A program made the translations under genes and the position numbers. A stretch of 64,000 bases of DNA from contig JAQTUZ010000002.1 of NCBI GenBank assembly GCA_028707065.1, positions 70,513-134,512 on the forward strand. Reading direction: 5' to 3'. The first letter of the stretch is position 1. Each line of letters starts with the position of its first letter. This stretch comes from Patescibacteria group bacterium (GTDB lineage: Bacteria; Patescibacteriota; Patescibacteriia; Patescibacteriales; WJLG01). Of this stretch, positions 22,132-63,659 are shown piece after piece. The notes beneath the pieces were generated by a model that saw only the letters and a program-made list of their open reading frames with translations, was not told the origin of the DNA and ran no database searches.

Positions 22132-23001
22132 ATGCCCGAACTGCCGGAAGTTGAGACGATTAGACACGACCTTGCCCGGAAAATAGTTGGCGCGAAAATC
22201 AGCGCGGTTGAGGTCAGAGATAAAAAATTAGGCGAAGCTAAAAACTTCGCCCGTGTTTTAGTCGGCAATAAGATCATCGCCGCCGAGCGGATCGGCAAGC
22301 TTTTGATAATGAGATTGAATGATAAAAATTTTTTGCTGATTCATTTGAAGATGACCGGCCAGCTGGTTTACGAAGATCAGGAAGAATTGCTGGCAGGAGG
22401 CCATGCGTTTAAGGAAGGGGATCTATTAGAGGAAATCGGGGGAAAGTTGCCCAATAAATACACCCGCTTCATTTTGAATTTTGCCGGCGGCAAAAAATTA
22501 TTTTTTAATGATACGCGCCGTTTTGGTTATGTTAAGATCGTTGACAAAAAAGAATTGGCTGAAATTAAAACCAGATTCGGCATCGAGCCGTTGCAAGCTA
22601 ATTTTACTTTGGCGAATTTAAAGAAAATTTTGGCGGACAAGAAGATCAATATCAAAGCCGCGCTGATGGACCAAAAAAATATCGCCGGGATCGGCAATAT
22701 TTACGCCTCGGAAATTTTATATGTCGCCCGCGTCAAGCCGACTCGTCCGGCCGGAAGTCTGAAAGCGGATGAGATCGGAAAAATTTTTCAAGCTTCAAAA
22801 GCGGTTTTAAAGAACGCTATCAAACATCGCGGCACGACTTTCAGCGATTATGTCGATACCGGCGGCAAAAAAGGAAATTTTTCCAAACTTTTAAAAGTTT
22901 ATGAGCGGGCAGGGGAGAAATGCCAGGTTTGCGGCGGAACGATTAAAAATACTAAAATAGCCGGTCGGAGCACTTATTTTTGCCCGAAATGCCAACATTA
23001 G
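22132..23001 (+). CDS. mutM: formamidopyrimidine-DNA glycosylase
   Basis: Starts MPELPEVE (catalytic Pro2). C-terminal zinc finger CQVCG...CPKCQ. Confidence 0.9.
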   Translation: MPELPEVETIRHDLARKIVGAKISAVEVRDKKLGEAKNFARVLVGNKIIAAERIGKLLIMRLNDKNFLLIHLKMTGQLVYEDQEELLAGGHAFKEGDLLEEIGGKLPNKYTRFILNFAGGKKLFFNDTRRFGYVKIVDKKELAEIKTRFGIEPLQANFTLANLKKILADKKINIKAALMDQKNIAGIGNIYASEILYVARVKPTRPAGSLKADEIGKIFQASKAVLKNAIKHRGTTFSDYVDTGGKKGNFSKLLKVYERAGEKCQVCGGTIKNTKIAGRSTYFCPKCQH

Positions 23002-23120
23002 TTAATTAGTTGATTGGTTAATTAGTTTCGGCTGAACCAAGTTCGCCTCTAAAGAATACGCAGTCTAGAATGATGAACTTTGTTTTACTAAAACTAATTA
23101 ACTAATCAACCAATCAACTG
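22999..23120. repeat. word-repeat inverted repeat (AATTAGTT word family)
   Basis: Left arm tagttaattagttgattggttaattagttt, right arm aaaactaattaactaatcaaccaatcaactg, about 60-nt spacer. Confidence 0.7.
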
Positions 23121-23192
23121 CCTTGACTTTTCCTTTAAAATTCAATAAGATACTAACATATCTAATTATTTAAACAGCATAATACTAACGAT

Positions 23193-23348
23193 ATGTCTCA
23201 AGACAATTTGATCAAGTTCGAATGCACGGAATGCAAAAAAATCACTCATTTTTCCCACAAAAATAAGAAAATTTTGAAGGAAAGGCTGGAATTGAATAAA
23301 TATTGCCAGAATTGCAAAAAGCATACTCTTCACAAGGAAACAAAATAG
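23193..23348 (+). CDS. rpmG: 50S ribosomal protein L33
   Basis: Manual 51-aa ORF, below the track cutoff: [51 protein letters not shown]. It has the CxxC...CxxC L33 pattern. A TTGACT-N17-TAAGAT promoter lies upstream. Confidence 0.85.
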
Positions 23349-23427
23349 TTAATTAGTTGATTGGTTAATTAGTTTTTTAGATACGACGTTTCGTCTGTTT
23401 TTTGTATTTGGTTAATTACCGTTCGTT

Positions 23428-23841
23428 ATGCTTATAAATAAAAAAATCAAATTTGCTATATTATTTTTTTTGGTTTTTGTTTTGTCCGGTTGCCAGACTT
23501 TTGGCGTGAGCGATGGCTTGAAGATTTTAAACGATAATCTGGGCAAGGCCTTGAACAGTTTGGGAGAAAATCAAGCCAGTTCGACTTTTAACTTCTTTGG
23601 CAAAAGCAATTCGACTAAGGATAAGGCGCTAACCTCGGCCGATCTGTCCGCGGCCGACAAACAAGCGATCGACGATTGGCTCGTTAAAAAAAGTTTGAAC
23701 CGCTACGGCGACGCCAAAAACGCGCTTTATACCGGCGGCACGCCGCTTTTTGATGAAGCGACCGGCAAAGCGATTGAACGCTATGATTATATCCTAAATA
23801 AATTCCCCGGTATTTTGGAACAAATTAAAAAAGGGGATTGA
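23428..23841 (+). CDS. hypothetical lipoprotein
   Basis: Signal peptide with lipobox LSGC. Confidence 0.55.
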   Translation: MLINKKIKFAILFFLVFVLSGCQTFGVSDGLKILNDNLGKALNSLGENQASSTFNFFGKSNSTKDKALTSADLSAADKQAIDDWLVKKSLNRYGDAKNALYTGGTPLFDEATGKAIERYDYILNKFPGILEQIKKGD

Positions 23842-23869
23842 TCCGGGGCCGCAAGGCTAACCTAAAAAT

Positions 23870-24928
23870 ATGGATAGAATTTTAATGACAAGAGTTTTTT
23901 TATTAGTGCTTCTTTTCGCGGTTTTGGGAGCGTGTTTTTTGGTTTTTAAGCCGTTCTTGATTGTTATTTTAGTGGCTGCCGTTTTAGCTTCTATTTTTTA
24001 TCGGCCCTATGAATGGCTGGCGAAAAAGCTCGGCGGGCGGAAAAAGATCGCCGCTTTAATTATGTGCGTCTTGATCATTCTGGTTATCATTATTCCGTTG
24101 ACAAATTTGATCGTTTTCGGGGCGCAAAAGTCGGTGGCCGCTTATTCAGACATGATGAATTTTTTAAATACCGGCGGTCTTGAAAATACGATTGAGAAAA
24201 GCGCTCTGAAAAATTTTCAGGAATTGTTCAATGTCGGCGGCGAAGGATTAAAAGCGCTTATCTTGGATGTCGCCCAGAAATCCAGTAACTTTTTAATGAG
24301 CGGCGCGGCCGGGTTTCTGAAAGGGACGACGACTTTCCTTATTTCTTTGATCCTGATCATTTTCACTCTGTTCTTTTTCTTTATCGATGGCCAAAAAATG
24401 CTGGAGCGGCTGATGTATTGGACGCCGCTGCCGGATAAATACGATCATCTGATAATCAAAAAGTTCCGCGATGTAAGCTATAGCGTTTTCCTTTCGACTT
24501 TTTTGGTCGCGCTGGTGCAAGCATCTTTAATAGCCGCGGTTTTTTTTATCGTTGGTCTGCCGGCGTTTTTTCCGGCGATCGCCACCGCGCTTTTGTCGAT
24601 GATCCCGTTTTTCGGCGCCTGGCTGGTCTGGCTGCCGGCCGGCATTTATCTTCTGGCAATCGGCCATATTTGGCAGGGAATTTTCATGATTCTTTTCGGC
24701 GCGGCGATAATCAGCACGGTTGACAATGTGATCCGGATGTTTGTGATCAAGGGCAAGGCCGAAGTGCACCCGATATTTATTTTGTTCTCGGTTTTGGGAG
24801 GCATTGCTTTGTTCGGCTTCTGGGGCATCGTTATCGGGCCGCTGCTGATCTCTTTGGCCGTGACCATTTTAAATATTTACGACGAATTGGAATACAGCAA
24901 GATTCTTCATAAAAAAGCGGATTTTTAA
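23870..24928 (+). CDS. AI-2E family transporter (PerM/UPF0118)
   Basis: Polytopic membrane protein, paralogous to the next gene (shared ...FFFFIDGQKMLERLMY..PLP.KYD...). Confidence 0.8.
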   Translation: MDRILMTRVFLLVLLFAVLGACFLVFKPFLIVILVAAVLASIFYRPYEWLAKKLGGRKKIAALIMCVLIILVIIIPLTNLIVFGAQKSVAAYSDMMNFLNTGGLENTIEKSALKNFQELFNVGGEGLKALILDVAQKSSNFLMSGAAGFLKGTTTFLISLILIIFTLFFFFIDGQKMLERLMYWTPLPDKYDHLIIKKFRDVSYSVFLSTFLVALVQASLIAAVFFIVGLPAFFPAIATALLSMIPFFGAWLVWLPAGIYLLAIGHIWQGIFMILFGAAIISTVDNVIRMFVIKGKAEVHPIFILFSVLGGIALFGFWGIVIGPLLISLAVTILNIYDELEYSKILHKKADF

Positions 24929-24946
24929 AATAACCGGAAATAAATT

Positions 24947-26393: not shown

Positions 26394-26464
26394 GCGGGGT
26401 TCGTATAGTGGTAGTACAGGGGTCTCCAAAACCTCTAGCGTGGGTCCGATTCCTACACCCCGTG
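26394..26464 (+). tRNA. tRNA-Trp (anticodon CCA), canonical type I
   Basis: Hand fold: acceptor GCGGGGT/ACCCCGT (G1-U72 wobble), anticodon arm GGGGT-CTCCAAA-ACCTC, short variable loop, T arm GTGGG-TCCGATT-CCTAC, discriminator G73. Confidence 0.85.
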
Positions 26465-26578
26465 CGTATATAAAATCATGTAAAGCGACCCGAAGGCCGA
26501 TTATTTTCGGGTTCCAGACCCAGACAGGTAAAAGTTTTTTGGATAGAAAATTTTAATTTTAAGATTAGATTTTTTTAT

Positions 26579-27808
26579 ATGGCCTATAAGGACGTGTCTG
26601 ACGACGCAATAAATTCAATAGCAAAATTTATTAATCAAAAGAGTAACAAGAATTACTCTATTCCTGTCGTTGGAGACGAGAACAATCCAGAGGTTCCACA
26701 TATTTTTGAAATAATTCCGTTTAATGAAATCGATAAAACTTCAAGTAAATTTTATGCAATAGACGGAAGTTATAATTCTCAAGAATTCTATAACGGTATG
26801 TGTATTGCGGTGTACGCCGCTGGGTATGTTTGCTATAAAGATGGAAAGCAGGTTTGTTTGAATGGGTTAGACGATCCAGTGATATTGGGAAAATCCTACT
26901 TTCCTGAAAGAGTTTTGGTTATAAATGATGAGGATAAGGAACTGATATATGATGAGTTGTTTTCTCTGGATCCGGTCAAGAAGTTAATTGCTTTTTTTGG
27001 GGATCCTGTTAGGGATATTTTTGCGTATGACAAAAAGGCTGTTTGTACCACAACATCAGCATTACTATCTTTTTGCCAGAGCGTTCTTGAATTGGCACTC
27101 ATATATGAAATTGCAAATCTTAAAACCACAGAAGTTGGCGACTTTATTTTACGAGATGGCACTTTAAGACCGATAGATGTTAAGCAAAAGTATTCTGTCA
27201 TGTTGGGAGAATATTTAAAGAAAAAAGGAATTATTATTGTTGCCATAACAAAAAATTCTGGAATTAAGATGGAGCTCTCATATACTTTCAAACAAATTGA
27301 TACATATCTTCAAGATAAATTAAAGCCGACATACTCATTTAAAAACCAAGATTCTAAATGTCAAAAACTTTGTTGTTGGTTTGAAGTTCCCACGACAGTT
27401 CTTTCCAGCGCATATGGTCAAATGTATATAAAAAAGGAGCTTACGGGCGGAAGAGGTTTTGGTTTGTTTTTTGTAGCTAGACTGGATTACGTTGAAAAAT
27501 TACAGAATTACGATTGGCTCGTTGTCGACGTTAATATCTTTGATGCAATTCCTGGAATCAAAACATTTGATATTAAACGAGACATTTTATTTTTAGAGAG
27601 TCTTTTTAAAGAGCTTACTCGTCTTACCCAAGAACATTATATTCTTGGGTATCCTTATCCTTTAGTAGAGGTGCACAATTTTATCACTCTTAAAAAGACA
27701 TTTAAAGATGAAATAATAAAGAGGGTAAAGTTTGCGTTATACGGCAATCAGCAAATGGATAATGTTGATATTGAAAATATATTTTTAGATATACACGATC
27801 GTTTTTAA
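26579..27808 (+). CDS. NurA-like nuclease
   Basis: FYAIDGSYN, ILRDGTLRP and VAITKNSGIK match the conserved DGS / DG(T/S)L / K.S strands of NurA. It sits immediately upstream of a HerA-like ATPase. Confidence 0.65.
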   Translation: MAYKDVSDDAINSIAKFINQKSNKNYSIPVVGDENNPEVPHIFEIIPFNEIDKTSSKFYAIDGSYNSQEFYNGMCIAVYAAGYVCYKDGKQVCLNGLDDPVILGKSYFPERVLVINDEDKELIYDELFSLDPVKKLIAFFGDPVRDIFAYDKKAVCTTTSALLSFCQSVLELALIYEIANLKTTEVGDFILRDGTLRPIDVKQKYSVMLGEYLKKKGIIIVAITKNSGIKMELSYTFKQIDTYLQDKLKPTYSFKNQDSKCQKLCCWFEVPTTVLSSAYGQMYIKKELTGGRGFGLFFVARLDYVEKLQNYDWLVVDVNIFDAIPGIKTFDIKRDILFLESLFKELTRLTQEHYILGYPYPLVEVHNFITLKKTFKDEIIKRVKFALYGNQQMDNVDIENIFLDIHDRF

Positions 27809-27825
27809 TAATTTAATATAAAAAT

Positions 27826-29487
27826 ATGATAAGTAAGGAAAATTTCGGAGTTTTGTATGGGCAAAAAACCACAGAAGATGCTCTGCTTATTTACTCATCT
27901 TATGCTGATTCTAAAGCAAGTCCTCAAACTGGTGATTTTATTGTTTTGGCGCCGAAGGATGAGAGCGGGATAAAGTTTCTCTCAAGAGTTGATGCAGAAA
28001 TTTACGACGAGGATCCGATTTTTAAATCTCAGGATAAGACGCTTATCGCGGTTCACTATGCCCGAATTGCAGAGCGTGAGCTTTCCGAAAGAGATAAGCA
28101 AAAAATTTTTAGCTATACGTATAAAGTTAAAATTTTGGGTACGTTCACTAACAATGGAGGCGGTATAGATTTTACAACCGCCGTAAGAAAGCTCCCCACG
28201 GTTTCGTATCATGCCCGACATCTTTTACCGGAAGAAATTAAATATATTTTAAATAAGGATAATCAACAGGAAGGTAGCCAACCATCAGCTTTAGGATATC
28301 TTTGTATCGGTGATTCCGAACAAAAGGAAAAGGGTGAAATATTTTTCGATATCAATAAACTTTGTAAAAAAAGAACAATGGTCTTTGCTCAATCTGGTTT
28401 CGGTAAGACAAACTTGGTTAAAACCTTGATTTATCATGCTATAGGTGATACTGGCTACGGGAAGCTTGTCTTCGATTTAAACGGAGAATATGCTTTAAAA
28501 AGTCAAAAGACAAATGGTCTCGGCGATATTAATGAGCAGAAAATAAAAGACAATCTAGTTGTGTATACTGATAAGTCAATTCCAGTAGAGTACAATGGTC
28601 GTTTTATTGCTGGTGGAAAAGTCGCCTTAAACATGTATAAGAATTTATCCGTAGGTGATGTGCTAAATTTTACTACTGGTTTTTCTGATGTAATGAAATC
28701 TTTTCTTATTTATTTGAACGATGGTGCTGGAAATTTTATGGAAAAGATTGAAGATTATGCCAGTACTCCACAAAATTTATATAAAGATTTCCCTGATTTT
28801 TGGGGTCAAGAGAAGTCGGATAAAAAAACAGGAGAATTTAAAGATGATGCTAAAGCACGTCCTACAATAATGGGCATTAGAAAAAGAATTGGTTTTCTTT
28901 TGGATGAGAAGGGTGGCTTGCATTCTAATTCGTCAACTTTAGTGGAGGATGTTTGTAAATATTTACGAGAAGGAAAAACTGTTGTATTGGATCTTTCAAT
29001 GAAAGATGACACCGAATCAAGTATTATTTCTACAATTATTGTGCGTAAAATATTCGAGATTAATAAAGCTAGTTTTACAACGGAAGAGGATATCGGCGAG
29101 CCAATTCCTTGCGTTATATTTGTTGAAGAGGCGCAAAATGTTTTATCGGAAGAATTCGTGAAATCAAATGCTAATCCTTTTGTGCGTATTGCAAAAGAAG
29201 GAAGAAAATTTGGAATCGGATTAGTCGGCATTACTCAGAGGCCATCGGCAATTTCTGAAGAAATAAGAACTCAGGCTGATAATTTTTTTGCATTTCACAT
29301 GGGGAATAGTGATGATATACGTGCGCTAGTCAAATCTAATTCTAATTATGATGGTGTCATTGCTAAATTTATTCAAAGCGAAACAATCCCCGGTAATTTG
29401 TACATGGTTTCTTCTACACAGGCGTTTGTTCTGCCCATCCGAGTATATGAATTTGAGAAAATGATAAAAACAAAACTATACAAATAG
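27826..29487 (+). CDS. HerA/DUF87-type (FtsK-HerA superfamily) ATPase
   Basis: Walker A AQSGFGKTN, Walker B CVIFVEEAQN, EGRKFGIGLVGITQRPSAIS. Confidence 0.8.
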   Translation: MISKENFGVLYGQKTTEDALLIYSSYADSKASPQTGDFIVLAPKDESGIKFLSRVDAEIYDEDPIFKSQDKTLIAVHYARIAERELSERDKQKIFSYTYKVKILGTFTNNGGGIDFTTAVRKLPTVSYHARHLLPEEIKYILNKDNQQEGSQPSALGYLCIGDSEQKEKGEIFFDINKLCKKRTMVFAQSGFGKTNLVKTLIYHAIGDTGYGKLVFDLNGEYALKSQKTNGLGDINEQKIKDNLVVYTDKSIPVEYNGRFIAGGKVALNMYKNLSVGDVLNFTTGFSDVMKSFLIYLNDGAGNFMEKIEDYASTPQNLYKDFPDFWGQEKSDKKTGEFKDDAKARPTIMGIRKRIGFLLDEKGGLHSNSSTLVEDVCKYLREGKTVVLDLSMKDDTESSIISTIIVRKIFEINKASFTTEEDIGEPIPCVIFVEEAQNVLSEEFVKSNANPFVRIAKEGRKFGIGLVGITQRPSAISEEIRTQADNFFAFHMGNSDDIRALVKSNSNYDGVIAKFIQSETIPGNLYMVSSTQAFVLPIRVYEFEKMIKTKLYK

Positions 29488-29492
29488 ATAAA

Positions 29493-30704: not shown

Positions 30705-30748
30705 AACTGTAGGTTAAATGACAAGATAATCAAGGACAAGCTAAATAT

Positions 30749-31657: not shown

Positions 31658-31776
31658 TGGCCCAGGGCCATATAGTGTCCCATTTGTCCCATTTAGTCTG
31701 CCCCATATGCCGTATAAAATATCATTGAATAATGCCGAAACTACTTGTATAATGTAATATAGACCCGTACGTGGTG

Positions 31777-31820
31777 CTGAAAATAAAAATGCTGGCTTGC
31801 GCCAGTATTTTTATTTTCAG
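31777..31820 (+). terminator. 20-bp AT-rich hairpin after the four-gene cassette
   Basis: ctgaaaataaaaatgctggc / ttgc / gccagtatttttattttcag (one mismatch). Confidence 0.65.
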
Positions 31821-31887
31821 TATCGAGGAGAATGGAATCGGACTGGCCGTGAGCGAACGCGGAATTCCCTCTATCCCCGTGAATTAG
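31821..31887. other. short GC-rich element with a tRNA-Trp-3'-end-like terminus
   Basis: gaggagaatggaatcgg...cggaattccctctatccccgtg. The end resembles tRNA-Trp ccgattcctacaccccgtg. Confidence 0.4.
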
Positions 31888-31890
31888 ATA

Positions 31891-31916
31891 ATATCGCCTC
31901 ATTAGCGATATTTTTT
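31891..31916 (+). terminator. hairpin plus T-run
   Basis: atatcgc / ctcatta / gcgatat followed by tttttt. Confidence 0.5.
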
Positions 31917-31958
31917 GATAGAAAAATTAAGCCTTTGTTATCAATAGCCGGCTTTATA

Positions 31959-31995
31959 TAAAAAAACCGCCCGAATGGTTTTGGCCATTGGGCGG
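31959..31995 (-). terminator. rho-independent terminator of the RT gene
   Basis: The minus strand reads ccgcccaatggcc aaaa ccattcgggcgg ttttttt. Confidence 0.65.
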
Positions 31996-32035
31996 AGTAA
32001 AATTGCGTTTACTTTCGATTTGTACATTCCAAATT

Positions 32036-35795: not shown

Positions 35796-35869
35796 ATTTG
35801 AAATTAGAAATTGGAAATTAGGCGTAAAAAATATATATTCCAAATTTCAAATTTCAAATTTCTAATTTC
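35796..35869. repeat. word-repeat inverted repeat (GAAATT word family)
   Basis: atttgaaattagaaattggaaattagg ... ccaaatttcaaatttcaaatttctaatttc. Confidence 0.7.
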
Positions 35870-35874
35870 TCTAT

Positions 35875-38410: not shown

Positions 38411-38527
38411 ATGATGCGAATACTACGAATTATTCGCGAATACCGCAAATTATTTATCGAATTATTTAATAATAATTCGATAGACCTGTTCGTAGTATTC
38501 GCGTAAAATTTGTTGTATTCGCATCAT
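38411..38527. repeat. word-repeat inverted repeat (CGAATA word family)
   Basis: atgatgcgaatactacgaattattcgcgaataccgcaaatt ... ctgttcgtagtattcgcgtaaaatttgttgtattcgcatcat. Confidence 0.7.
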
Positions 38528-38549
38528 AAAATGAAGTATTTATAGATCT

Positions 38550-42435: not shown

Positions 42436-42564
42436 AAATCCGAAACTCAAAATCCTAAATCCGAAACAAATTTAAAGCACAAAATCCAAAATCCAAAACG
42501 TTTCGAATTTTTGTTATTTGGATTTCGGATTTGTCTCGGATTTTGTGCTTAGGATTTCGGATTT
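42436..42564. repeat. word-repeat inverted repeat (GGATTT/AAATCC word family)
   Basis: aaatccgaaactcaaaatcctaaatccgaaac...gcacaaaatccaaaatccaaaacg / ...atttggatttcggatttgtctcggattttgtgcttaggatttcggattt. Confidence 0.7.
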
Positions 42565-42597
42565 CAACGTTTGTTATGCTATAGGGATTAATATATT

Positions 42598-43011
42598 ATG
42601 ATTAAAGAAATAGTTGACAATAAAGACAAACCAAGGATTTTACTCTTGGAGGATTATCCCGATTTGATCGAGTATTACTTTGCCAAATTGACCGAGGCGG
42701 GATTTGCGGTGGATGTGGAAAGCGATGAAGACCATGGCCTCTCGCAAGTCTTAAAAGATAAGCCGGATCTGGTTATTTTAGATATCAGTTTGCCCAAAGC
42801 CGATGATTTCGGTTTTATCAGGGAAATGAAAAAGCATCCGGAAATAGCGGGTGTACCGGTTTTGATCTTAACCGATCTGGCGGACGAGAAAGACGTTGAG
42901 GCGGGTTTGAAAGCGGGAGCCAGCGTTTATCTGGTCCGGGATGATTTCGCTTTTGCCCAAGTTATTGATAAGATAAAGGAAGTGATCGAAAAAGTAAGAA
43001 GTAAGAAGTGA
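42598..43011 (+). CDS. single-domain response regulator (CheY-like receiver)
   Basis: ILLLEDYPDL, phospho-acceptor region DLVILDISLP, and PVLILTD. Confidence 0.85.
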   Translation: MIKEIVDNKDKPRILLLEDYPDLIEYYFAKLTEAGFAVDVESDEDHGLSQVLKDKPDLVILDISLPKADDFGFIREMKKHPEIAGVPVLILTDLADEKDVEAGLKAGASVYLVRDDFAFAQVIDKIKEVIEKVRSKK

Positions 43012-43057
43012 GAAGTAAGAAATCATTTTTAGTTCTGACTTCTTACTTCTAATTTCT
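42993..43057. repeat. word-repeat inverted repeat (GTAAGAA word family)
   Basis: agtaagaagtaagaagtgagaagtaagaaatc ... ctgacttcttacttctaatttct. The left arm overlaps the CDS 3' end. Confidence 0.65.
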
Positions 43058-43072
43058 AACTCCCTGTTTTAT

Positions 43073-44119: not shown

Positions 44120-44269
44120 AATTAGTTGATTAGTCAATTAGTTAATTAGTTTACGTTATCAAAGATTGGTTATTTTAAAGTCATAAAATAGAAAATTTTT
44201 CCATAGCCGATCAAATTTAACGAATCTGTTAACACCAAAACTAATTAACCAATTAACTAATCGACTAAT
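44120..44269. repeat. word-repeat inverted repeat (AATTAGTT word family)
   Basis: aattagttgattagtcaattagttaattagttta ... aaactaattaaccaattaactaatcgactaat. About 85-nt spacer. The right arm ends 3 nt before the pilC start. Confidence 0.7.
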
Positions 44270-49500: not shown

Positions 49501-49545
49501 AAAGGCTGTTGGCAAGGGAGGGCGGATATAGTATAATAAACACAT

Positions 49546-49649
49546 AATCCGAACCTACGAAATATCCGAATACAACGAACGTTTTTAACTAATATTTGTT
49601 TTGTTCAGAGGGTTCGTAGTATTCGTGTATAATTCGTAGTATTCGTATT
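49546..49649. repeat. word-repeat inverted repeat (CGAATA word family)
   Basis: aatccgaacctacgaaatatccgaatacaacgaacg ... ggttcgtagtattcgtgtataattcgtagtattcgtatt. Confidence 0.7.
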
Positions 49650-49686
49650 ATATACCCAAGTTAATCAAGTTAAGAAAAACGTTAAT

Positions 49687-51167: not shown

Positions 51168-52355
51168 ATGGCTGAAATAAAACCATTGGCCGAAACATTC
51201 GCCAAGATCAAAGTCGTGGGCGTGGGCGGCGGCGGCGGAGCCGCGATCCAAAGAATGATCGAAAAAGAGATCAGAGGCGTGGATTTTATTGCCATCAATA
51301 CCGATGTGCAGGCTTTGCATTACAATAAAGCCGGCGATAAATTGCATATTGGCAAATCGGTTACCAGAGGTCTGGGAGCGGGAATGAATCCGGAATTGGG
51401 CCGGCAGGCGGCGGAAGAATCGCAGAATGAGGTCAGGGATGTTTTAAAAGGCTCGGATATGGTGTTTATTACCTGCGGTTTGGGCGGCGGAACCGGTACG
51501 GGAGCGGCGCCGGTAGTGGCGGAGATCGCCCGGGATCTGGGCGCGCTGACCGTGGCGGTCGTGACCAGGCCCTTTTCTTTTGAAGGCGGACAGCGCAAGG
51601 CGATCGCCGAGCGCGGCTTTGCCGAACTGGCTGATAAGGTTGATACGATCATCACCATCAACAATGATAAATTATTGCAGATCATCGATAAGAAAACTTC
51701 TTTGATGGAAGCTTTTTCGGTAGCGGACGATGTGTTGCGCCAGGGCGTCCAGGGCATTGCCGAGATCATCACTATTCCCGGCTTGATCAACGTTGACTTT
51801 GCCGATGTCCGGGCGGTGATGCAAAATGCCGGCTCGGCTTTGATGGGCATCGGCCAGGCGTCGGGCGAAAATCGGGCGATTGAGGCGGCCAAGGCGGCGA
51901 TCAATTCCACTTTGCTGGATATGTCGATCGACGGCGCGCGCGGGATCGTTTTTACCATTACCGGCGGAACCAATCTGGGCATGAACGAAGTTTCCGAGGC
52001 CGCGAAGGTGATTACCGCTTCGGCCGATTCTGAAGCCAAGATAATTTTTGGCGCGGTAATTGACGAGCGATTAAAAGATGAAATAAAAGTTACGGTCGTG
52101 GCCACCGGTTTTGACGGCCAGGCGCGGGATATTTCCGGCAAACAAATGCGCACTGCTTATACGCCTAATTCCTTTATCGCGGAGAAGGAAGACAAAAGCC
52201 GCGGCTGGTTCGGCGGCAAGTCTGATAATACGTCCGATACAATGAAGAAAAGCAAGATCTCGCCGGTAAAAATGGCCCAGGAAGAATTGCCGGACGAAGA
52301 ATCGGAAGAAGGCGAACTCGGCATCCCGGCGTTTATTAGGAAGAAAATGAAATAG
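51168..52355 (+). CDS. ftsZ: cell division protein FtsZ
   Basis: [26 protein letters not shown] and NVDFADV. Confidence 0.95.
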
Positions 52356-52467
52356 AAGTAAGAAGGCAGAAGTAAGAAGTAAAAAACCCTTGACTTATTT
52401 TGCCGATTTGATATGCTTAAAATAGATTAGAACTTTGAAAGGCTGGGGCTGGACACCCCTAATAAAA

Positions 52468-52770: not shown

Positions 52771-52887
52771 TATCGGACTGTAATCCGATATTATTTACGA
52801 AATAGTGTATCTAAGAAAAAAATAGACGCGGCTTTCTTTTTTGTGTAGAAAAATCCGGCTATTAGCTGGGCATAAAATCTTATCGTT

Positions 52888-52972: not shown

Positions 52973-53027
52973 CAAGAAAATTTTTATGCCCAACTCATGG
53001 TCGGATTTTTTATTTTGAAATAACTCG

Positions 53028-53758: not shown

Positions 53759-53804
53759 AATTTATAGCCTAGTGTTACGTGTTATGAGTTATGTGTTATG
53801 CGAT

Positions 53805-54868: not shown

Positions 54869-54964
54869 AATTTTTGCAATTTTTAAATTTTTAAAGAAAT
54901 TTCAATTTTTAATTTTTAAAAATTAGACATTAAAAATTATTTAAAAATTCAAAAATTAAAAATT
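54869..54964. repeat. word-repeat inverted repeat (AAATTTTT word family)
   Basis: aatttttgcaatttttaaatttttaaagaaatttcaatttttaattttt ... ttaaaaattatttaaaaattcaaaaattaaaaatt, in the divergent FBA/gpmI intergenic region. Confidence 0.6.
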
Positions 54965-54970: not shown

Positions 54971-56581
54971 ATGGAAGAAAAAAGGAAGAAAAGACCAATA
55001 GTACTAGTCATTTTAGATGGTTGGGGCGAGTGGGATATTGAAAAAGGCAATCCGGTCGTTAAGTCTAAATTGCCTTTGATCGATAAATTGAACGCCCACT
55101 ATCCAAAAACTTATCTGCAAGCGTCAGGCATGGCGGTCGGCTTGCCTTGGGGCGTACGGGGCAATTCCGAAGTCGGGCATCAGACTATCGGCTCGGGCCA
55201 GATCGTCTTTCAATTTTTGCCGACGATCACCACCGCGATCGGCGAGGGATCTTTTTTTAAGAATGAAGCATTGCTCGGCGCTTTTGCCTGGGCGAAAAAA
55301 AATAATTCCAATCTGCACGTCCTGGGCTTATTGAGCGACGGAGCGGTTCATTCCCACATCGAACATCTGTTCGCGCTTTTGGAAATGGCCAAAAAAAACG
55401 AGGTCAAGGAAGTTTATATCCATGCCGTGACTGATGGCCGCGATACTCATCCGCAAAGCGCCAAAAAATATTTGAGCATGCTGGAAAATAAGATCAGCGA
55501 GATCGGCATCGGCAAAATCAGTACTCTAAGCGGCCGCTATTTTACCATGGACCGGAATAATAATTGGGACAGGGTGGAAAAAGCATTTTTAGCGATAACT
55601 GCCGGCATCGGGGTCAAGGAAAAAAATCCGCATGAGGCGGTTGATAATCAGTATGCCCGCGGAATTTTTGACGAATATTTGGAACCGGTAATTTTAACCG
55701 GCGACAATGAGGACCCGGTTTGCTTGGTTAAAGATAACGACGCGCTGATCTGTTTTAATTTCCGCAAAGATCGTTCCCGGCAGATCACCAAGGCGTTTGT
55801 CCTGCCTGGTTTCAAAGAATTCAAACAGGCCAAGCCGCCGGCCAACATTAAATACGTTTGTTTTGCCCAATATGAGGAAAATTTGCCGGCTGAAGTGGCG
55901 TTCGAGGAACAGCAAATAACCGTGCGCTTGGGCGAAATATTGTCAAAAAATTGGAAAAGGCAATTGCGCATTTCCGAAACGGAAAAATACGCCCATGTCA
56001 CTTATTTTTTCAATGGGGGGATGGAAGAGCCGTTTTTTTACGAGGACCGGATACTCGTCCCTTCCAAGCAAGTTAAATCTTATGCCGACGCGCCGGAAAT
56101 GAGCGCCACGGAGATTACGGAAAAATTGGTCGAAGCGATGAATAAAAATAATTATGATTTTATTCTGGTCAATTACGCCAATTCCGATATGGTCGGGCAT
56201 ACGGGAAATTATAACGCGGCCGTCAAGGCGCTCCAGCATGTCGATGGCTGTTTGGAAAAATTAATTGAAGCCGTGTTTGCCAAAGGAGGGGAGTTGATTA
56301 TTACCGCCGATCACGGCAATGTCGAAGAAATGTTGAATATTTATACGGGCGAACCTGATACCCAGCATTCCAAAAATGTCGTGCCTTGCTGGTACGTGGC
56401 TCCTGATAGTTGGATCGAAAGTCAGGAAAAACCCAAAAAGATTGAAGCGGGCGGATTGCTGGTTGATCTGGCGCCGACGATCCTGGATCTCCTGGGTTTT
56501 GAAAAACATTCGGCCATGGTCGGCTCGAGCCTGATCAAGCAATTCAAGAGGCAGCAGCCGGAGGTTGAAGAAGAAATTTGA
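54971..56581 (+). CDS. gpmI: 2,3-bisphosphoglycerate-independent phosphoglycerate mutase
   Basis: VLVILDGWG, SEVGHQTIGSG, ADHGN. Confidence 0.9.
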   Translation: MEEKRKKRPIVLVILDGWGEWDIEKGNPVVKSKLPLIDKLNAHYPKTYLQASGMAVGLPWGVRGNSEVGHQTIGSGQIVFQFLPTITTAIGEGSFFKNEALLGAFAWAKKNNSNLHVLGLLSDGAVHSHIEHLFALLEMAKKNEVKEVYIHAVTDGRDTHPQSAKKYLSMLENKISEIGIGKISTLSGRYFTMDRNNNWDRVEKAFLAITAGIGVKEKNPHEAVDNQYARGIFDEYLEPVILTGDNEDPVCLVKDNDALICFNFRKDRSRQITKAFVLPGFKEFKQAKPPANIKYVCFAQYEENLPAEVAFEEQQITVRLGEILSKNWKRQLRISETEKYAHVTYFFNGGMEEPFFYEDRILVPSKQVKSYADAPEMSATEITEKLVEAMNKNNYDFILVNYANSDMVGHTGNYNAAVKALQHVDGCLEKLIEAVFAKGGELIITADHGNVEEMLNIYTGEPDTQHSKNVVPCWYVAPDSWIESQEKPKKIEAGGLLVDLAPTILDLLGFEKHSAMVGSSLIKQFKRQQPEVEEEI

Positions 56582-56642
56582 AATTGGAAATTAGAAATTA
56601 GATATTAGGATGACAAATTTCTAATATCAAATTTCCAATTTC
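56573..56642. repeat. word-repeat inverted repeat (GAAATT word family)
   Basis: gaaatttgaaattggaaattagaaattagatattagg ... caaatttctaatatcaaatttccaatttc. The left arm overlaps the gpmI stop. Confidence 0.7.
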
Positions 56643-56654
56643 TGACTGTTTAAC

Positions 56655-56688
56655 AAAAAAACGCCTTCTTTTCTGAAGACGTTTTTTT
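56655..56688. terminator. bidirectional terminator between gpmI and ferredoxin
   Basis: aaaaaaacgccttc ttttct gaagacgttttttt. Confidence 0.7.
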
Positions 56689-56877: not shown

Positions 56878-57055
56878 AATTAGTTGATTAGTTTATTAGT
56901 GAACTAGTTTTTATTATAGCATATTAATTTTATAGAACGTAGTAAGTCAAGTTGATAAAAACGATTGACAAAATTGAAATTATATGATATGTATATTATA
57001 TAAAAATGTTTTTTACAATCTACGGAAACTTTAAACTAAAACAATCGGAGGGTAT

Positions 57056-58325: not shown

Positions 58326-58435
58326 ACAAAAGTCAATTTCATTGACGATCCGTGGGGATTTTTTTCTCGCGGATTTTTTATTAACGCAGCCCTTGACGGG
58401 TTTTTTATATGTGTTATTATGAAATCAATCAAATA

Positions 58436-58548
58436 AAGCCATAGACAGCAGGCGGGGGAATCACCCCATTAAGACCTGCCGAGGCGAATTATAGATTCTC
58501 TATTTTTTGTTTTAATGTCTGTGGCTAAAACCACAGTTTTATTTTTTT
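58436..58548 (+). promoter_or_regulatory. candidate ribosomal protein L10 (rplJ) leader with attenuator hairpin
   Basis: Promoter TTGACG...TATTAT at about 58394-58420. Structured segment GCAGG-cGGGGaatcaCCCC-attaaga-CCTGC, then CTGTGG-ctaaaa-CCACAG followed by a T-run (58519-58548). Confidence 0.4.
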
Positions 58549-58553
58549 AAAAA

Positions 58554-58641
58554 TCAACATAACACACAGCACGTAACACATAACAGTAAAATTAATTTAT
58601 TTAACTGTTGCATGTTATGTGTTATGTGATATGTGTTACGT
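58554..58641. repeat. word-repeat inverted repeat (GTTATGTG word family)
   Basis: caacataacacacagcacgtaacacataacag ... ctgttgcatgttatgtgttatgtgatatgtgttacgtg. The right arm ends 6 nt before the rplJ start. Confidence 0.7.
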
Positions 58642-58647: not shown

Positions 58648-59175
58648 ATGCCTAAAACAAGAGCGCAAAAGCAGGTGATTCTGGATGGGTTGACCGAAAA
58701 GGCAAAGAAGGCCAAGTCCGTTGTTTTCGCCAAGTTCAACAAATTGCTGGTCAAGGAAAACGAGGATCTGCGCCATCGCCTCAAGGCCGAAGGCGGCGAA
58801 TATTATGTCGCCAAAAAGACTTTATTCAATCTGGCTTTCAAAAACAATCAGCAAGAGATTGATTTTAAAACCATGGACGGCCAAGTCGCGGCGATCTTCG
58901 GCTATCAAGACGAAGTTGCTCCGGCCAAAGTCGTGGATACTTTCCGCAAGGAAATGGAAGAGCCGAAGATATTTTTCTTGGGCGGAATTTTGGAGAATAA
59001 ATTCATTTCCAAAGAGATGGTGGAAAGCCTGGCCAAGCTTCCTTCCAGGAAGGAATTATACGCCAAGCTGGTCGGCTCGATGAACGCTCCGGTTTCCGGT
59101 TTCGTCAATGTCTTGGCTGGCAATTTACGCGGCTTAGTCACTTGTTTGAAAGCGATTGGCGAGAAGAAAGCTTAA
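58648..59175 (+). CDS. rplJ: 50S ribosomal protein L10
   Basis: ATG at 58648 (MPKTRAQKQ...). L10-typical sequence, followed by rplL. Confidence 0.9.
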   Translation: MPKTRAQKQVILDGLTEKAKKAKSVVFAKFNKLLVKENEDLRHRLKAEGGEYYVAKKTLFNLAFKNNQQEIDFKTMDGQVAAIFGYQDEVAPAKVVDTFRKEMEEPKIFFLGGILENKFISKEMVESLAKLPSRKELYAKLVGSMNAPVSGFVNVLAGNLRGLVTCLKAIGEKKA

Positions 59176-59180
59176 AATCT

Positions 59181-59277
59181 GATGCGAATGCCGCGAATTG
59201 GTCGCGAATGCCGCGAATGAATGCTAATAATATTCGCATTGATTAGCGGCATTAGCATAAATTTGCGGATTAGCATC
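59181..59277. repeat. word-repeat inverted repeat (GCGAATG word family)
   Basis: gatgcgaatgccgcgaattggtcgcgaatgccgcgaatgaatgc ... attcgcattgattagcggcattagcataaatttgcggattagcatc. Confidence 0.7.
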
Positions 59278-59317
59278 AATCTTATAATAATCTATTAATA
59301 AAACTAATATTAAATCT

Positions 59318-59762: not shown

Positions 59763-59776
59763 GTTGAGATATATCT

Positions 59777-59869
59777 CTACGAATTACGAATTATTACGAA
59801 TATACGAATTATCTGATTGGCGGCTGAATTTAAAAATTCGTATATTCGTTTTTTATTCGTAGTTCGTAG
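59777..59869. repeat. word-repeat inverted repeat (ACGAAT word family)
   Basis: ctacgaattacgaattattacgaatatacgaatt ... aattcgtatattcgttttttattcgtagttcgtag. Confidence 0.7.
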
Positions 59870-59896
59870 AAAAAAAACGGATAGCTTTTCTTTTTC

Positions 59897-62262: not shown

Positions 62263-62390
62263 AAATTAGTTAATTAGTTAAGTAGTTAATTGGTTGTATT
62301 TTTTTATAGTTAAAATCGGGTTACGACCGGTAATTACACGAATAACTCCGCAAAATTGTAAACTAATTAACTAATCAACCAATTAACTAA
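62263..62390. repeat. word-repeat inverted repeat (AATTAGTT word family)
   Basis: aaattagttaattagttaagtagttaattggttg ... aaactaattaactaatcaaccaattaactaa. It lies in a divergent promoter region, and the right arm ends 4 nt before the ATG at 62395. Confidence 0.7.
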
Positions 62391-62394
62391 TTTT

Positions 62395-63039
62395 ATGCTT
62401 TCTAAATTATTCGGTTCCAATTCCCGAGTCAAAATATTAAAGGCTTTTTTGTTTCATCCGGATGAAAGATATTATATCCGGCAGCTTAGCCGTGATTTAA
62501 GTTTGCAAGTCAATTCGGTGCGCCGGGAATTGGAAAATTTGGAAGATTTCGGCTTATTGCTTTCGGAATCGAGTAACGGCGCGGAAAACCAAGAGGGGTT
62601 GATCGAGGCGAGAAGTTCTGATCGCTCCACCTACGCTAAGGCTTCGGCGGACAAGCAGGAAAAAAAATATTTCCGCGTCAACAAGGATTTTCATTTGTTC
62701 GAAGATATCAAGGGTTTGATCATCAAGTCGCAGCTTCTGCATAAGGACGATATTTCCAAGGATCTCTTGAAAGCCGGCAGCATAAAATTGCTCGTCTTGA
62801 CCGGAGTTTTCGTTAACGATTTCAAATCGCCGACCGACATGCTGATCGTCGGCAAAATAAATAAAGACCGCCTATTGAAAATTATTCGCGATTTGGAAAG
62901 GGAATTAGGGCGTGAGGTAAACTTCACGCTGTTATCGGCTACGGAATTCAAATATCGCCGCGATATCGCCGATATTTTTCTTTATGATCTTTTGGGAAAG
63001 GAAAAGATCATCGTGATTGATGAAATCGGCATCAGTTGA
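62395..63039 (+). CDS. winged-helix transcriptional regulator-like protein
   Basis: N-terminus RVKILKAFLFHPDERYYIRQLSRDLSLQVNSVRRELENLEDFGLL. Confidence 0.6.
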   Translation: MLSKLFGSNSRVKILKAFLFHPDERYYIRQLSRDLSLQVNSVRRELENLEDFGLLLSESSNGAENQEGLIEARSSDRSTYAKASADKQEKKYFRVNKDFHLFEDIKGLIIKSQLLHKDDISKDLLKAGSIKLLVLTGVFVNDFKSPTDMLIVGKINKDRLLKIIRDLERELGREVNFTLLSATEFKYRRDIADIFLYDLLGKEKIIVIDEIGIS

Positions 63040-63040
63040 G

Positions 63041-63145
63041 TATTGTTAAATTGTTAAATTGCTACATTGTTGCGCGACGAGAAAACATAGTTAAGAGATG
63101 ATTTAAATCGTTGCGTAACAATTTAACAATGCAGCAATGCAACAG
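63041..63145. repeat. word-repeat inverted repeat (ATTGTTA word family)
   Basis: tattgttaaattgttaaattgctacattgttgcgcgacg ... cgttgcgtaacaatttaacaatgcagcaatgcaacag. Confidence 0.7.
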
Positions 63146-63257
63146 TTATAAAATCTAGTTATTGACCAGTTGAAAATTGTTTGATAAAATATATCTCTAA
63201 GAAAACATTCAATCCGGCTCCAGCAGGGCAGAGGATTTTGTTTTTTTAAGCAAAAAC

Positions 63258-63551
63258 ATGGAGCGAGAAAATGACGAAAAATCCGGTGGTGTAAAAAATT
63301 TTGCTCTTGGAATGGCGCTTTATAGCAGCGCTTCAATTCTGGGACCGATAATTTTTTTTGGCGTTATCGGTTATTTTTTGGATAAGGCTTATAACGGCAA
63401 ACATTTGATCCTGTTGGTTTCCGTTTTCATCGCTTTTATTATCAGCAATATCTTAATCTTCCGCAAAACTTTCGCGGTCATGGCTGAACTGAAAAAATTC
63501 CACGGCAACGGCAAGAACGGATATGATGACGATAGTGATGACTGGCGGTGA
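63258..63551 (+). CDS. AtpZ/AtpI-like small membrane protein
   Basis: Two TM helices, directly upstream of ATP synthase subunit a. Confidence 0.6.
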   Translation: MERENDEKSGGVKNFALGMALYSSASILGPIIFFGVIGYFLDKAYNGKHLILLVSVFIAFIISNILIFRKTFAVMAELKKFHGNGKNGYDDDSDDWR

Positions 63552-63569
63552 AAATTATTTAAATATTTA

Positions 63570-63659
63570 ATTGTCGCATTGTTACATTGCTGCATTGTTA
63601 CGCAACGAAATTAATGCGTTAATAATTTAGCACTTTAGCAATGTAACAATGTAACAATG
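63570..63659. repeat. word-repeat inverted repeat (ATTGTTA word family)
   Basis: ttgtcgcattgttacattgctgcattgttacgcaacg ... gcactttagcaatgtaacaatgtaacaatg. The right arm includes the atpB start codon. Confidence 0.7.

Follow-up and report, generated by a model that had tools for sequence, protein, structure and literature searches.

Intergenic hairpins with tandem-word arms in a Patescibacteria genome, possibly families of dispersed palindromic elements

Here we describe 15 intergenic spacers of a Patescibacteria group bacterium, all within positions 22,999-63,665 of the 64,000-nt stretch of DNA analysed (the window), that carry a long imperfect inverted repeat; four lone arms accompany them. 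The arms are tandem arrays of short words, and these word hairpins are real. We give even chances to the reading that they are dispersed palindromic families of the REP/BIME/REPIN or MITE type that have colonised the spacers of this Patescibacteria (CPR) genome, with the tandem-word arm as their unusual trait. It draws support from the arms, which are closer across non-orthologous loci than is the coding DNA of the same genomes. Elements of this kind have apparently not been described before in Patescibacteria/CPR, and they are a variant of the known REP/MITE-like class rather than a wholly new one.

Anatomy and position of the hairpins

The sites were detected by repeat search, TRF and our own einverted-like scan, to which RNA folding added the hairpin at 63040-63146. 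Each arm is 25-56 nt long and made of about four degenerate 7-9-nt units, and the spacer enclosed by the arms (0-95 nt) is unrelated between copies (Table 1). An earlier note on this DNA had counted at least 17 hairpins; 15 of them hold and the other two, at 23346 and 56879, are lone arms, whereas the lone arms that it placed at 52356 and 53770 were found as such. It had also placed arms at upstream stop codons and next to the following start codons, and indeed six stop codons are abutted or overlapped by an arm (-15 to +3 nt), five start codons lie 1-6 nt from one, and some stems bridge the entire gap between a stop codon and the start codon after it.

The real sequence contains 18 inverted repeats scoring at least 34, against none in 20 segment-wise dinucleotide shuffles, and 30 of the 33 tandem arrays of period 6-9 fall in non-coding DNA, which makes up 13.6% of the window. 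When folded as RNA, the 15 hairpins reach -15.5 to -55 kcal/mol (z -2.2 to -11.0), and for 14 of them no shuffle was as stable. Word hairpins occupy 0 of 18 spacers in the first 22 kb and 15 of 38 after it (Fisher p=0.001). No Rfam family matched any hairpin. A lone TAATTTG array lies just outside the range of the original finding, which starts at 22999.

Table 1. Word hairpins and lone arrays in the window
Feature	Position	Strand	Anatomy and context	Fold
Lone TAATTTG x4.7 array	22092..22124	+	abuts fpg start codon	
AATTAGTT-family hairpin	23000..23119	.	arms 23000-23044 and 23075-23119, 30-nt spacer; begins 2 nt inside fpg stop codon; rpmG promoter comes after	dG -39.8, z -7.1
Lone AATTAGTT arm	23346..23376	+	overlaps rpmG stop codon; then short stem and T-run	
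GAAATTW-family hairpin	35800..35869	.	flanked by two minus-strand genes (comF-like, 412-aa gene)	z -4.1
GCGAAT/TACGAAT-family hairpin	38411..38527	.	56-nt arms; termini ATGATGCGAAT...ATTCGCATCAT; between pilM and next gene	dG -55.1, z -11.0
AAATCCG/CGGATTT hairpin	42436..42566	.	fills pilB/REC spacer (168 nt); inverted repeat scanned at 42450-42564	z -4.4
GTAAGAA hairpin	42990..43062	.	REC/pilT; inverted repeat scanned at 42997-43050; array codes for last 5 codons and stop of REC gene	z -6.0
AATTAGTT-family hairpin	44121..44269	.	fills pilT/pilC, from 1 nt past stop to 3 nt short of ATG	z -8.5
CGAA/TTCGTAG-family hairpin	49544..49651	.	starts 7 nt after promoter-like TTGGCA-17-TATAAT, therefore in ftsA 5' UTR	z -6.0
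Lone AGAAGTA array	52354..52382	+	ftsZ stop codon	
Lone GTGTTAT array	53772..53800	+	flanked by two minus-strand genes	
AAATTTTT/AAAAATT palindrome	54869..54964	.	GC 9%; ends 6 nt upstream of iPGM ATG	z -2.2, weakest of set
GAAATTW-family hairpin	56572..56643	.	overlaps iPGM stop codon	z -4.9
Lone AATTAGTT-type array	56879..56912	+	adjoins start of minus-strand ferredoxin gene	
ACATAAC/GTTATGT hairpin	58557..58641	.	inserted between L10 leader (58421-58552, with own stem and T-run) and rplJ ATG	z -4.8
GCGAATGCC-family hairpin	59173..59284	.	within rplJ-rplL operon	z -5.1
TACGAAT hairpin	59776..59870	.	after stop of 764-aa minus-strand gene	z -9.2
AATTAGTT-family hairpin	62263..62393	.	whole 5' UTR of 214-aa gene (g214); conserved promoter TTGACG-18-TATACT ends 62260, ATG 62395	z -5.2
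ATTGTTA-family hairpin	63040..63146	.	immediately 3' of 214-aa gene stop; inner core GTTGCGCGACGA	z -5.8
ATTGTTAC-family hairpin	63565..63663	.	fills g97/atpB; atpB ATG inside last word	z -5.6

Are these hairpins terminators? By position, the elements lie within transcription units: inside operons (rplJ/rplL, pilB/REC/pilT/pilC, g97/atpB), as whole 5' UTRs directly 3' of promoters (62263, 49544), or in the gap that parts a stop codon from a distinct canonical terminator. In the last arrangement, hairpin 56572 is followed by a bidirectional terminator at 56655-56688 and, seen from the stop of the 764-aa gene, hairpin 59870-59776 by another at 59762-59728. Such placement argues that the hairpins are not terminators, as the earlier note had held in calling them not simply terminators; the missing T-run that it reported is equally borne out, since none of the 15 hairpins is followed by one, and their GC content is 9-41%. 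Certain phyla do terminate with long stems lacking U-tracts (PMC13613805), and many of our hairpins start at or beside stop codons. Nevertheless, that they act as non-canonical intrinsic terminators without a U-tract is highly improbable, given their presence within the rplJL, pilus and atp operons and in promoter-to-start gaps, the canonical stem and T-run terminators that adjoin word hairpins (the two above and one at ~23380-23405), and the relatives that have no hairpin at the same sites.

Word families across loci and genomes

The words are not locus-specific, as had first been claimed. They form families (AATTAGTT, GAAATTW, GCGAATGCC/TACGAAT, ATTGTTA and GTTATG) that recur at unrelated loci, with a constant polarity inside every family. 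Within the window, 23346-23375 equals 22999-23028 (100% over 30 nt), 49612-49652, the right arm of the 49544 hairpin, matches 38488-38528 (85% over 41 nt), and 56573-56643 matches 35800-35870 (77% over 75 nt). Where families match at non-orthologous loci in metagenomic genomes of relatives, identity is 90-100% over 24-43 nt, a value partly inflated by the choice of the best register in short low-complexity arms, while these genomes are less similar in their coding DNA (73-76%). The left arm of the rplJ/rplL hairpin (59173) thus matches an arm at g97/atpB in L086 (97% over 38 nt), the arm 5' of g214 one at pilT/pilC in L172 (100% over 28 nt), and the arm 3' of fpg one 5' of g214 in L081 (97% over 31 nt). 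The same architecture, built with other words, was seen in other CPR loci (L005, L007, L009 and L011) and was absent from the non-CPR control loci examined.

Comparison of three orthologous copies gave 86-92% conservation in the arms and 42-56% in the loops, and loops vary within a family. Arm sequence stays near the family consensus, and neither loop nor pairing is kept.

At a given junction the element can be present in relatives, replaced by a hairpin of another family, or absent, with an empty spacer of 5-11 nt. The pilB/REC spacer filled in the window measures 5-11 nt in four relatives, and pilT/pilC, 153 nt in the window, 9-33 nt; the empty-site relatives share 86-91% PilT identity. The spacer between pilM and the next gene, which holds the 38411 hairpin, measures 6-54 nt in relatives. 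At pilT/pilC, L172 has an orthologous copy of the same family, L173 a two-unit remnant and another relative a 9-nt spacer. Four words were found at REC/pilT, where relatives carry GCATAGGA, AAAATTA or AAGTTATA arrays, and four families at g97/atpB, where relatives have GCGAATGCC, AATGCTA or GC-rich hairpins. The g214 5' UTR holds at least four families across genomes, and in all relatives a hairpin reaching the ATG comes right after the conserved promoter. The ATTGTTA hairpin at 63040..63146 has a homologous copy at the same site in L086, and in L081 and L085 GC-rich hairpins are nested inside an ATTGT-word hairpin. No consistent target-site duplication distinguishes filled from empty sites.

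Origin and possible roles

Among the alternatives of the earlier note, a mobile palindromic unit fits best with near-identical arms at non-orthologous loci, family swaps and empty sites. The elements would have spread by copying, through transposition by some enzyme or through ectopic conversion or template switching, with tandem units probably shaped by slippage, and no single copy would be essential. Slippage may explain why the arms are internally periodic and why lone arrays exist. Indeed, some arrays look grown from the local stop-codon context (REC/pilT), which together with the L173 remnant favours the view that some copies, at least, grew in place through slippage. Against mobility stand the lack of a transposase or RAYT gene in the window and in the relatives' gene lists, the lack of a consistent target-site duplication, and loops that, unlike those of typical MITEs and REPINs, are not conserved within a family. 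Co-transcribed elements would fold in the mRNA into long stems and probably modulate it, by analogy with REP and Correia elements; such stems could shield 3' ends, serve as RNase III sites or impede initiation where a start codon abuts. That the same junctions are occupied repeatedly could stem from selection for a hairpin and not from an insertion preference.

Could they instead be selected RNA structures generated in place, each junction needing a long stem to be processed by RNase III, protect a 3' end, couple translation or occlude a start codon? If only structure were selected, sequence would turn over, and the same junctions do carry different words in several genomes. The constant promoter-hairpin-ATG order at g214, the stems reaching from stop to start codon and the very stable folds point the same way, and with a Shine-Dalgarno sequence in 7 of 69 genes, structure near start codons could matter. 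Intercistronic RNase III hairpins, long stems inside one transcript, occur in phage T7 and in E. coli operons, and are a candidate model for what the transcribed elements might do. However, each of those is a unique structure, conserved through compensatory evolution, and not a member of a dispersed repeat family. In the hairpins described here compensatory changes are near-absent (1/31, 0/32 and 1/25 pairs in the orthologous copies). An arm is no more complementary to its own partner than to arms from other loci (47.3 against 45.5), and the sense strand shows no excess of G:U over A:C (40 vs 56). Selection to keep pairing, for which the earlier note had proposed arm co-variation as a check, is thus unsupported. 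Moreover, the corresponding spacers of close relatives measure 5-11 nt, and arm primary sequence is kept across non-orthologous loci, which a constraint on structure alone does not predict. We consider selected RNA structure rather unlikely.

A pure mutational by-product, in which replication slippage produces the 7-8-nt arrays of AT-rich spacers and fold-back template switching adds the inverted copy, with neither mobility nor function, would suit the tandem make-up of the arms, the common lone arrays, the two-unit remnant and the arrays that extend gene 3' ends with words holding the local stop codon. Heptamer units are also the commonest among long simple repeats in bacteria (Mrazek et al. 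2007, summarised in PMC4679880). This origin is nonetheless distinctly unlikely in view of the 38-43-nt non-periodic matches linking unrelated loci in genomes of ~75% coding identity, the arms conserved where loops diverge and the constant polarity per family. Furthermore, none of the AATTAGTT-type arrays of 78 viral contigs comes with an inverted partner, and inversion is therefore not automatic for an array. A constraint on arm primary sequence with no RNA signature could also mean DNA-level arrays that bind a protein (nucleoid, gyrase or IHF-like, as at E. coli BIMEs) or DNA-uptake signals, which are often inverted pairs. About four repeated units per arm resemble multimeric binding sites, and the organism encodes a type IV pilus and competence-related genes. 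But at least eight unrelated words in one 64-kb window would need many factors or a reader of shape only, uptake sequences are not confined to intergenic DNA as these elements are, and no candidate protein was identified; we judge this very unlikely.

Relation to known repeats

Read as dispersed palindromic families, the hairpins resemble the REP/BIME/REPIN elements of Proteobacteria in being strictly extragenic, in forming inverted doublets with long hairpins next to singlets, in having several families per genome with arm sequence conserved across related genomes while surroundings diverge, and in operon-internal co-transcription; the inter-unit linkers of BIMEs vary as well (PMC3116915, PMC3337134, PMC3733652). 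They differ in that their arms are not palindromic but AT-rich arrays of 7-9-nt units, in the lack of a general GTAG/CGTC head and of any RAYT found, in spacers unrelated between copies, and in the host, a CPR bacterium. Correia repeat-enclosed elements and MITEs (ERIC, RUP, BOX) are likewise ~100-150-nt units with terminal inverted repeats in spacers, present or absent between strains and transcribed with neighbour genes, their hairpins being RNase III-cuttable or expression-altering, and BOX too has a tandemly repeated module (PMC2649163, PMC10969869, PMC2229807, PMC3049150). MITE copies, however, share a conserved core, a target-site duplication and a parent IS element, whereas the copies here have unrelated cores and no evident duplication, and no IS is known for them.

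Cyanobacterial repeats of the STRR type are tandem heptamer repeats in direct arrays. The long simple sequence repeats and the TAACTGA repeats of Beggiatoaceae, Cyanobacteria and Bacteroidetes are, like our arms, intergenic arrays of 7-nt units, often just upstream of start codons, with one word across loci and lineages and slippage as the suspected source; in BOGUAY, 169 direct sets stand against one indirect set (PMC4679880). Here, in contrast, an array as a rule has its reverse complement for a partner, and one genome holds many word families.

Anatomy and distribution of the word hairpins

A repeat search, TRF and our own einverted-like scan agree on a set of intergenic inverted repeats with arms made of tandem 7-9-nt units, here called word hairpins. 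An earlier note had counted at least 17 of them; 15 hairpins hold, with four lone arms in the range that it covered (4-5 overall), whereas its entries at 23346 and 56880 are lone arms, that is, word arrays with no inverted partner. Non-coding DNA, which makes up 13.6% of the window, contains 30 of the 33 period-6-9 arrays, and at 15 of about 20 array sites (units of 7, 8 or 9 nt) a reverse-complement partner stands 0-95 nt away. In every family, the tandem-repeat scan gives arms close to four units long (about 30 nt). Inverted repeats scoring at least 34 numbered 18, whereas 20 shuffles, done segment by segment (genic or intergenic) with dinucleotides preserved, gave none. The arms are direct tandem arrays, and RNA folding pairs arm with arm and not inside one arm, with energies of -15.5 to -55.1 kcal/mol for the 15 hairpins (z from -2.2 to -11.0); for 14 of them, none of 200 shuffles folds equally well. 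Their distribution is uneven: they occupy 0 of 18 spacers in the first 22 kb and 15 of 38 beyond it (p=0.001).

The genes around the hairpins are fpg and rpmG, the type IV pilus operon (pilM, pilB, a REC-domain gene, pilT, pilC and the prepilin peptidase gene), ftsA and ftsZ, the genes of a DeoC aldolase, iPGM and a ferredoxin, the L10 leader with rplJ and rplL, the genes of a 764-aa and a 214-aa protein with no assigned function, and the start of the atp operon. An exact-protein look-up of the 214-aa product gave no record. The window, which belongs to a Patescibacteria (CPR) genome, has a GC content of about 43%. No FtsZ among 185,579 species representatives is more than 67% identical to its own, the nearest being that of a Candidatus Falkowbacteria MAG.

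Related metagenomic contigs were reached through the 764-aa protein (L081-L090, 49-86% amino-acid identity) and through PilT (L171-L173, 88-91%), and synteny is kept between them and the window; the closest long contig (carrying P0006) entered by its gene coordinates only, not as DNA. In all, the analysis covered about 64 kb of the source genome and about 100 kb of related contigs. We report plain inverted-repeat densities because the word-specific detectors were too strict: the one that combined a TRF array with a reverse-complement unit (at most one mismatch) missed clear cases in three other CPR loci (L005, L009 and L011), and a cut-off of 0.8 periodicity in both arms kept only four hairpins in the window. 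At a score of at least 34, the density is 2.8 per 10 kb in the window, 5-10 in L081-L086 and about 0.45 in 80 FtsZ loci of other CPR and non-CPR genomes; L171-L173 give 0.8-1.6 per 10 kb at the laxer score of at least 30. By eye, a like architecture with its own words occurs in other CPR lineages (AGTTATTR in an Uhrbacteria MAG, TACGAAT in L005, ACCATGA and AAAAGTTA in another CPR locus, L007), and it was not seen in Bacillaceae, Collinsella or the other controls. In the 78 viral contigs that hold AATTAGTT-like arrays, none of these arrays had an inverted partner within 300 nt, and two matches to GATGCGAATGCCGCGAAT were dismissed as chance occurrences in GC-rich coding DNA.

Position in the transcripts

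The word hairpins are not terminators. The earlier note had already judged them not simply terminators, and their position in operons and 5' UTRs, the lack of a T-run and the separate canonical terminators alongside bear this out. Indeed, the compact GC-rich stem followed by a U-tract is absent from the hairpins, which have a GC content of 9-41% and no T-run after any of them, and canonical terminators with stem and T-run adjoin word hairpins in the window. The iPGM stop is followed by a hairpin and then by a bidirectional terminator, the stop of the 764-aa gene by a hairpin and then a terminator, and the rpmG stop by a lone arm and then a short stem with a T-run. Other hairpins are operon-internal, in rplJ|rplL (the bar denotes the spacer between two genes), in pilB|REC|pilT|pilC (REC being the REC-domain gene) and in g97|atpB, g97 being the 97-aa gene before atpB. 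Two hairpins start 3-7 nt downstream of promoter-like sites, TTGACG-18-TATACT, kept in all relatives, and TTGGCA-17-TATAAT, and therefore lie in 5' UTRs; the first precedes the gene of the 214-aa protein (g214). The hairpin at 58557 follows the L10 leader and precedes the rplJ ATG. We rejected it as the terminator of this leader, which has its own stem and T-run; the hairpin is a copy of a dispersed family. At gathering score, Rfam 15 matches only three tRNAs and the L10 leader in the window, and at E<=0.05 it offers no family for the hairpins, the sole match being a spurious miRNA precursor at 23000-23119.

Two side observations belong here. An unlisted 51-aa ORF carries a CxxC...CxxC pattern and was taken to encode ribosomal protein L33 (rpmG); a promoter-like TTGACT-17-TAAGAT lies upstream of it, and its stop codon falls inside a lone AATTAGTT arm. 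The leader before g97, the first gene of the atp cluster, is kept in L081, L082, L085 and L086; it consists of a promoter-like TTGACC-17-TAAAAT, then a small hairpin CAATCCGGC...GGATT with a T-run, and could be an attenuator.

Coordinates of features in the window
Feature	Position	Remarks
Lone arms	23346-23376; 52354-52382; 53772-53800; 56879-56912	
rpmG ORF	23193-23348	
Promoter-like TTGGCA-17-TATAAT	ends at 49537	
Hairpin after iPGM stop	56572-56643	
Bidirectional terminator	56655-56688	
Stem and T-run of L10 leader	58519-58546	
Hairpin after 764-aa gene stop	59870-59776	
Terminator after that hairpin	59762-59728	
Promoter-like TTGACG-18-TATACT	ends at 62260	
Hairpin in 5' UTR of g214	62263-62393	
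Leader before g97	63162-63257	
GC-rich palindromic repeat	39476-39531; 40196-40251	80% identity over 56 nt; GATCCCGC...GCGGGAC
Long-armed CCA tRNA	52888-52973	86 nt; loop CTCCAAA
Inverted repeat around it	52849-52877 / 52982-53010	29 nt
tRNA-Trp(CCA)	26394-26465	72 nt, normal
tRNA-Ser(TGA) 36-nt repeat	10490-10525; 10609-10644	exact
165-nt direct repeat	5598-5762; 5966-6130	99.4% identity
ORF with copied 5' end	6027-6557	
Strong non-word hairpins	5584-5625; 5739-5821	near the 165-nt repeat
Defence-type cluster	657-5390	ParB-methylase, S24 peptidase, SMODS and S_4TM effector (CBASS-like)
Defence-type block	26579-33085	low GC (0.34); NurA, HerA, DruA, Mrr-cat
Reverse transcriptase	32036-33085	minus strand
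TGTCCCATT x2.1	5460-5478; 31676-31694	identical
Tandem repeat, period 48 nt	17273-17401	2.7 copies

Families, turnover and constraint

The words had been taken as locus-specific. Instead, the arms form families that recur at unrelated loci: within 64 kb we count eight AATTAGTT arms, two GAAATTW hairpins, which align with each other over 75 nt, four CGAAT-type hairpins and two ATTGTTA hairpins. The stretch 23346-23375 is identical to 22999-23028, and 49612-49652 is 85% identical to 38488-38528 over 41 nt. Moreover, a AATTAGTT arm is no more complementary to its own partner than to arms at other loci (47.3 versus 45.5), and the GCGAATGCC subfamily behaves likewise. The families also extend across genomes. 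Window arms and arms at non-orthologous junctions of the relatives are 90-100% identical over 24-43 nt, values which register choice inflates over such short repetitive arms, while the coding DNA of the same relatives is only 73-76% identical to that of the window. The left arm of rplJ|rplL matches g97|atpB of L086 at 97% over 38 nt of non-periodic sequence, and the right arm upstream of g214 matches pilT|pilC of L172 at 100% over 28 nt.

Orthologous junctions are often occupied in the relatives, but by a different family. Even L081 and L085, at about 90% nucleotide identity, carry different families at two junctions.

Repeat families at orthologous junctions
Junction	Window	Relatives
g97|atpB	ATTGTTAC	GCGAATGCC (L081, L086); AATGCTA (L085); GC-rich element (L082)
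5' UTR of g214	AATTAGTT	AATTAGTT (L081, L085); GAAATTW (L082); GAAAATT (L086); CAAATCA (L090); non-word hairpins (L084, L087)
REC|pilT	GTAAGAA	GCATAGGA; AAAATTA; AAGTTATA
comF|412-aa gene	GAAATTW	GTTATG-type (L172, L173)

Empty sites are found in close relatives as well: pilB|REC measures 168 nt in the window versus 5-11 nt in four relatives, the spacer between pilM and the next gene 142 nt versus 6-54 nt, and pilT|pilC 153 nt versus 9-33 nt in two relatives. Some arrays add five or six codons to the 3' end of the REC gene. Elements can also be nested, as GC-rich hairpins sit in the loop of an ATTGT-word hairpin in the g214|g97 spacer of L081 (2889-3161) and L085 (3008-3272); their sequences are CCCCGTCAGAGTC...GACTCTGACG and CGGCAGAGTC...GACTCTGCCG. 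GC-rich elements of related sequence (CCACCCC/GGAGGGG) stand on both sides of a 1.8-kb insertion in L081, and in L082 they take up the g97|atpB spacer. In the window, a GC-rich palindromic repeat lies in two pilus-operon spacers that measure only 3-31 nt in L171-L173, a second, non-word kind of spacer insertion.

What is constrained in these elements? Three hairpins that are orthologous and of one family show 86-92% identity in the arms and 42-56% in the loops. The earlier note had proposed to ask whether arms co-vary to keep pairing: these three hairpins show hardly any compensatory changes (1 of 31, 0 of 32 and 1 of 25 pairs). Among 38 hairpins there is no sense-strand excess of G:U over A:C mismatches (40 versus 56, p=0.13), and transversion-type mismatches are the commonest (141). 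For pairing as such, there is no sign of selection at the RNA level. Conserved arms, divergent loops and the lack of an RNA-level signature thus indicate that the primary sequence of the arms is held near the family consensus.

Likeness to known repeats, and other features of the window

The word hairpins fit best with dispersed palindromic repeat families acting like REP/BIME/REPIN or MITE-type elements. They share with these an extragenic location, the coexistence of inverted doublets and singlets, several families per genome, an arm consensus kept across genomes, presence/absence and replacement, nesting and co-transcription. They match REP/REPIN in forming multi-copy extragenic families, as seen within these 64 kb, and in the arrangement as doublets (15) with singlet remnants (the lone arms), but their unit is a 20-40-nt imperfect palindrome, whereas the word-hairpin arms are not palindromic. 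The conserved GTAG or CGTC head of REP/REPIN (PMC3733652) is absent from the AATTAGTT, GAAATTW, ATTGTTA and GTAAGAA arms as read, and GTAG is present only in TTCGTAG-type arms, as part of the word. REP/REPIN families also have a cognate single-copy RAYT (Y1 transposase) flanked by repeats; neither a Y1_Tnp/RAYT nor any other transposase domain was found in the ORFs of the window, about 6% of a genome of about 1 Mb, or in the L171-L173 gene lists. As in MITEs, there are terminal inverted repeats with family-specific termini, for instance GATGCGAAT...ATTCGCATC. The conserved internal core of MITEs has no counterpart, the AATTAGTT spacers being unrelated and orthologous loops divergent, and neither the window nor the related contigs yielded a parent IS that shares the terminal repeats. 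When filled and empty sites were compared, AATCT flanked both ends of 59181-59284; the other copies had no consistent target-site duplication. Given this partial fit and the missing hallmarks, we liken the word hairpins to REP and MITE elements and do not count them as members.

Among published descriptions, those of the TAACTGA heptamer direct repeats (PMC4679880) and of the REPINs (PMC3116915) come nearest, and full-text searches yielded no paper linking CPR/Patescibacteria with REP, MITE or tandem-word hairpins. The heptamer repeats (TAACTGA, STRR, LSSR) are intergenic 7-nt arrays in one orientation, whereas the word arrays are mostly paired with a reverse complement. The tandem-word arms and the lone arrays suggest that slippage also contributes. 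DNA-uptake sequences were rejected as the main reading, because the words are many and unrelated and the elements strictly intergenic. Turnover of the repeats outpaces gene divergence, while their arm sequence is more conserved than coding DNA; this pattern implies an active copying or homogenising process.

By analogy with the mRNA roles of REP and Correia elements (PMC2649163, PMC10969869), the transcribed stems might shield 3' ends, serve as RNase III sites or impede initiation where a start codon abuts them. The window genome is Shine-Dalgarno-poor: a GGAG/GAGG/AGGA motif precedes only 7 of 69 genes. CPR/Patescibacteria genomes, at about 1 Mb, are regarded as streamlined. A wider proposal, which we hold to be rather improbable, is that the hairpins are CPR-specific self-propagating palindromic satellites, whose consensus would be kept by a sequence-specific enzyme or by conversion, leaving them more conserved than nearby genes, and which would have been co-opted as 5'-UTR, intercistronic and 3'-UTR stems setting mRNA processing, stability and initiation in streamlined, Shine-Dalgarno-poor genomes. 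Dispersed palindromic repeats account for much of what little non-coding DNA this lineage has (in the window, 15 of 38 spacers after 22,000 carry one) and are a ready supply of RNA stems at gene boundaries, including those of ribosomal, ATP synthase, cell-division and pilus operons. Should a mobilising enzyme or an RNA-level role come to light, the hairpins would amount to a REP/RAYT-like system of an uncultured phylum. The repeats could also serve as strain-typing markers for CPR populations.

Other features of the window deserve mention. One tRNA has the long variable arm of a class-II shape but the anticodon CCA, and a normal tRNA-Trp(CCA) is present elsewhere in the window; the inverted repeat flanking the odd tRNA could form a stem for its processing. 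An exact copy of the first 36 nt of tRNA-Ser(TGA) stands 119 nt upstream and could be an integration (att) scar. The 165-nt direct repeat copies the upstream region and 5' end of an ORF. The reverse transcriptase gene follows the NurA-HerA-DruA-Mrr-cat genes, beside a structured 378-nt spacer, and a TGTCCCATT copy closely follows the final gene of each defence cluster. Finally, the 48-nt-period tandem repeat lies within a DEAD-box helicase gene.
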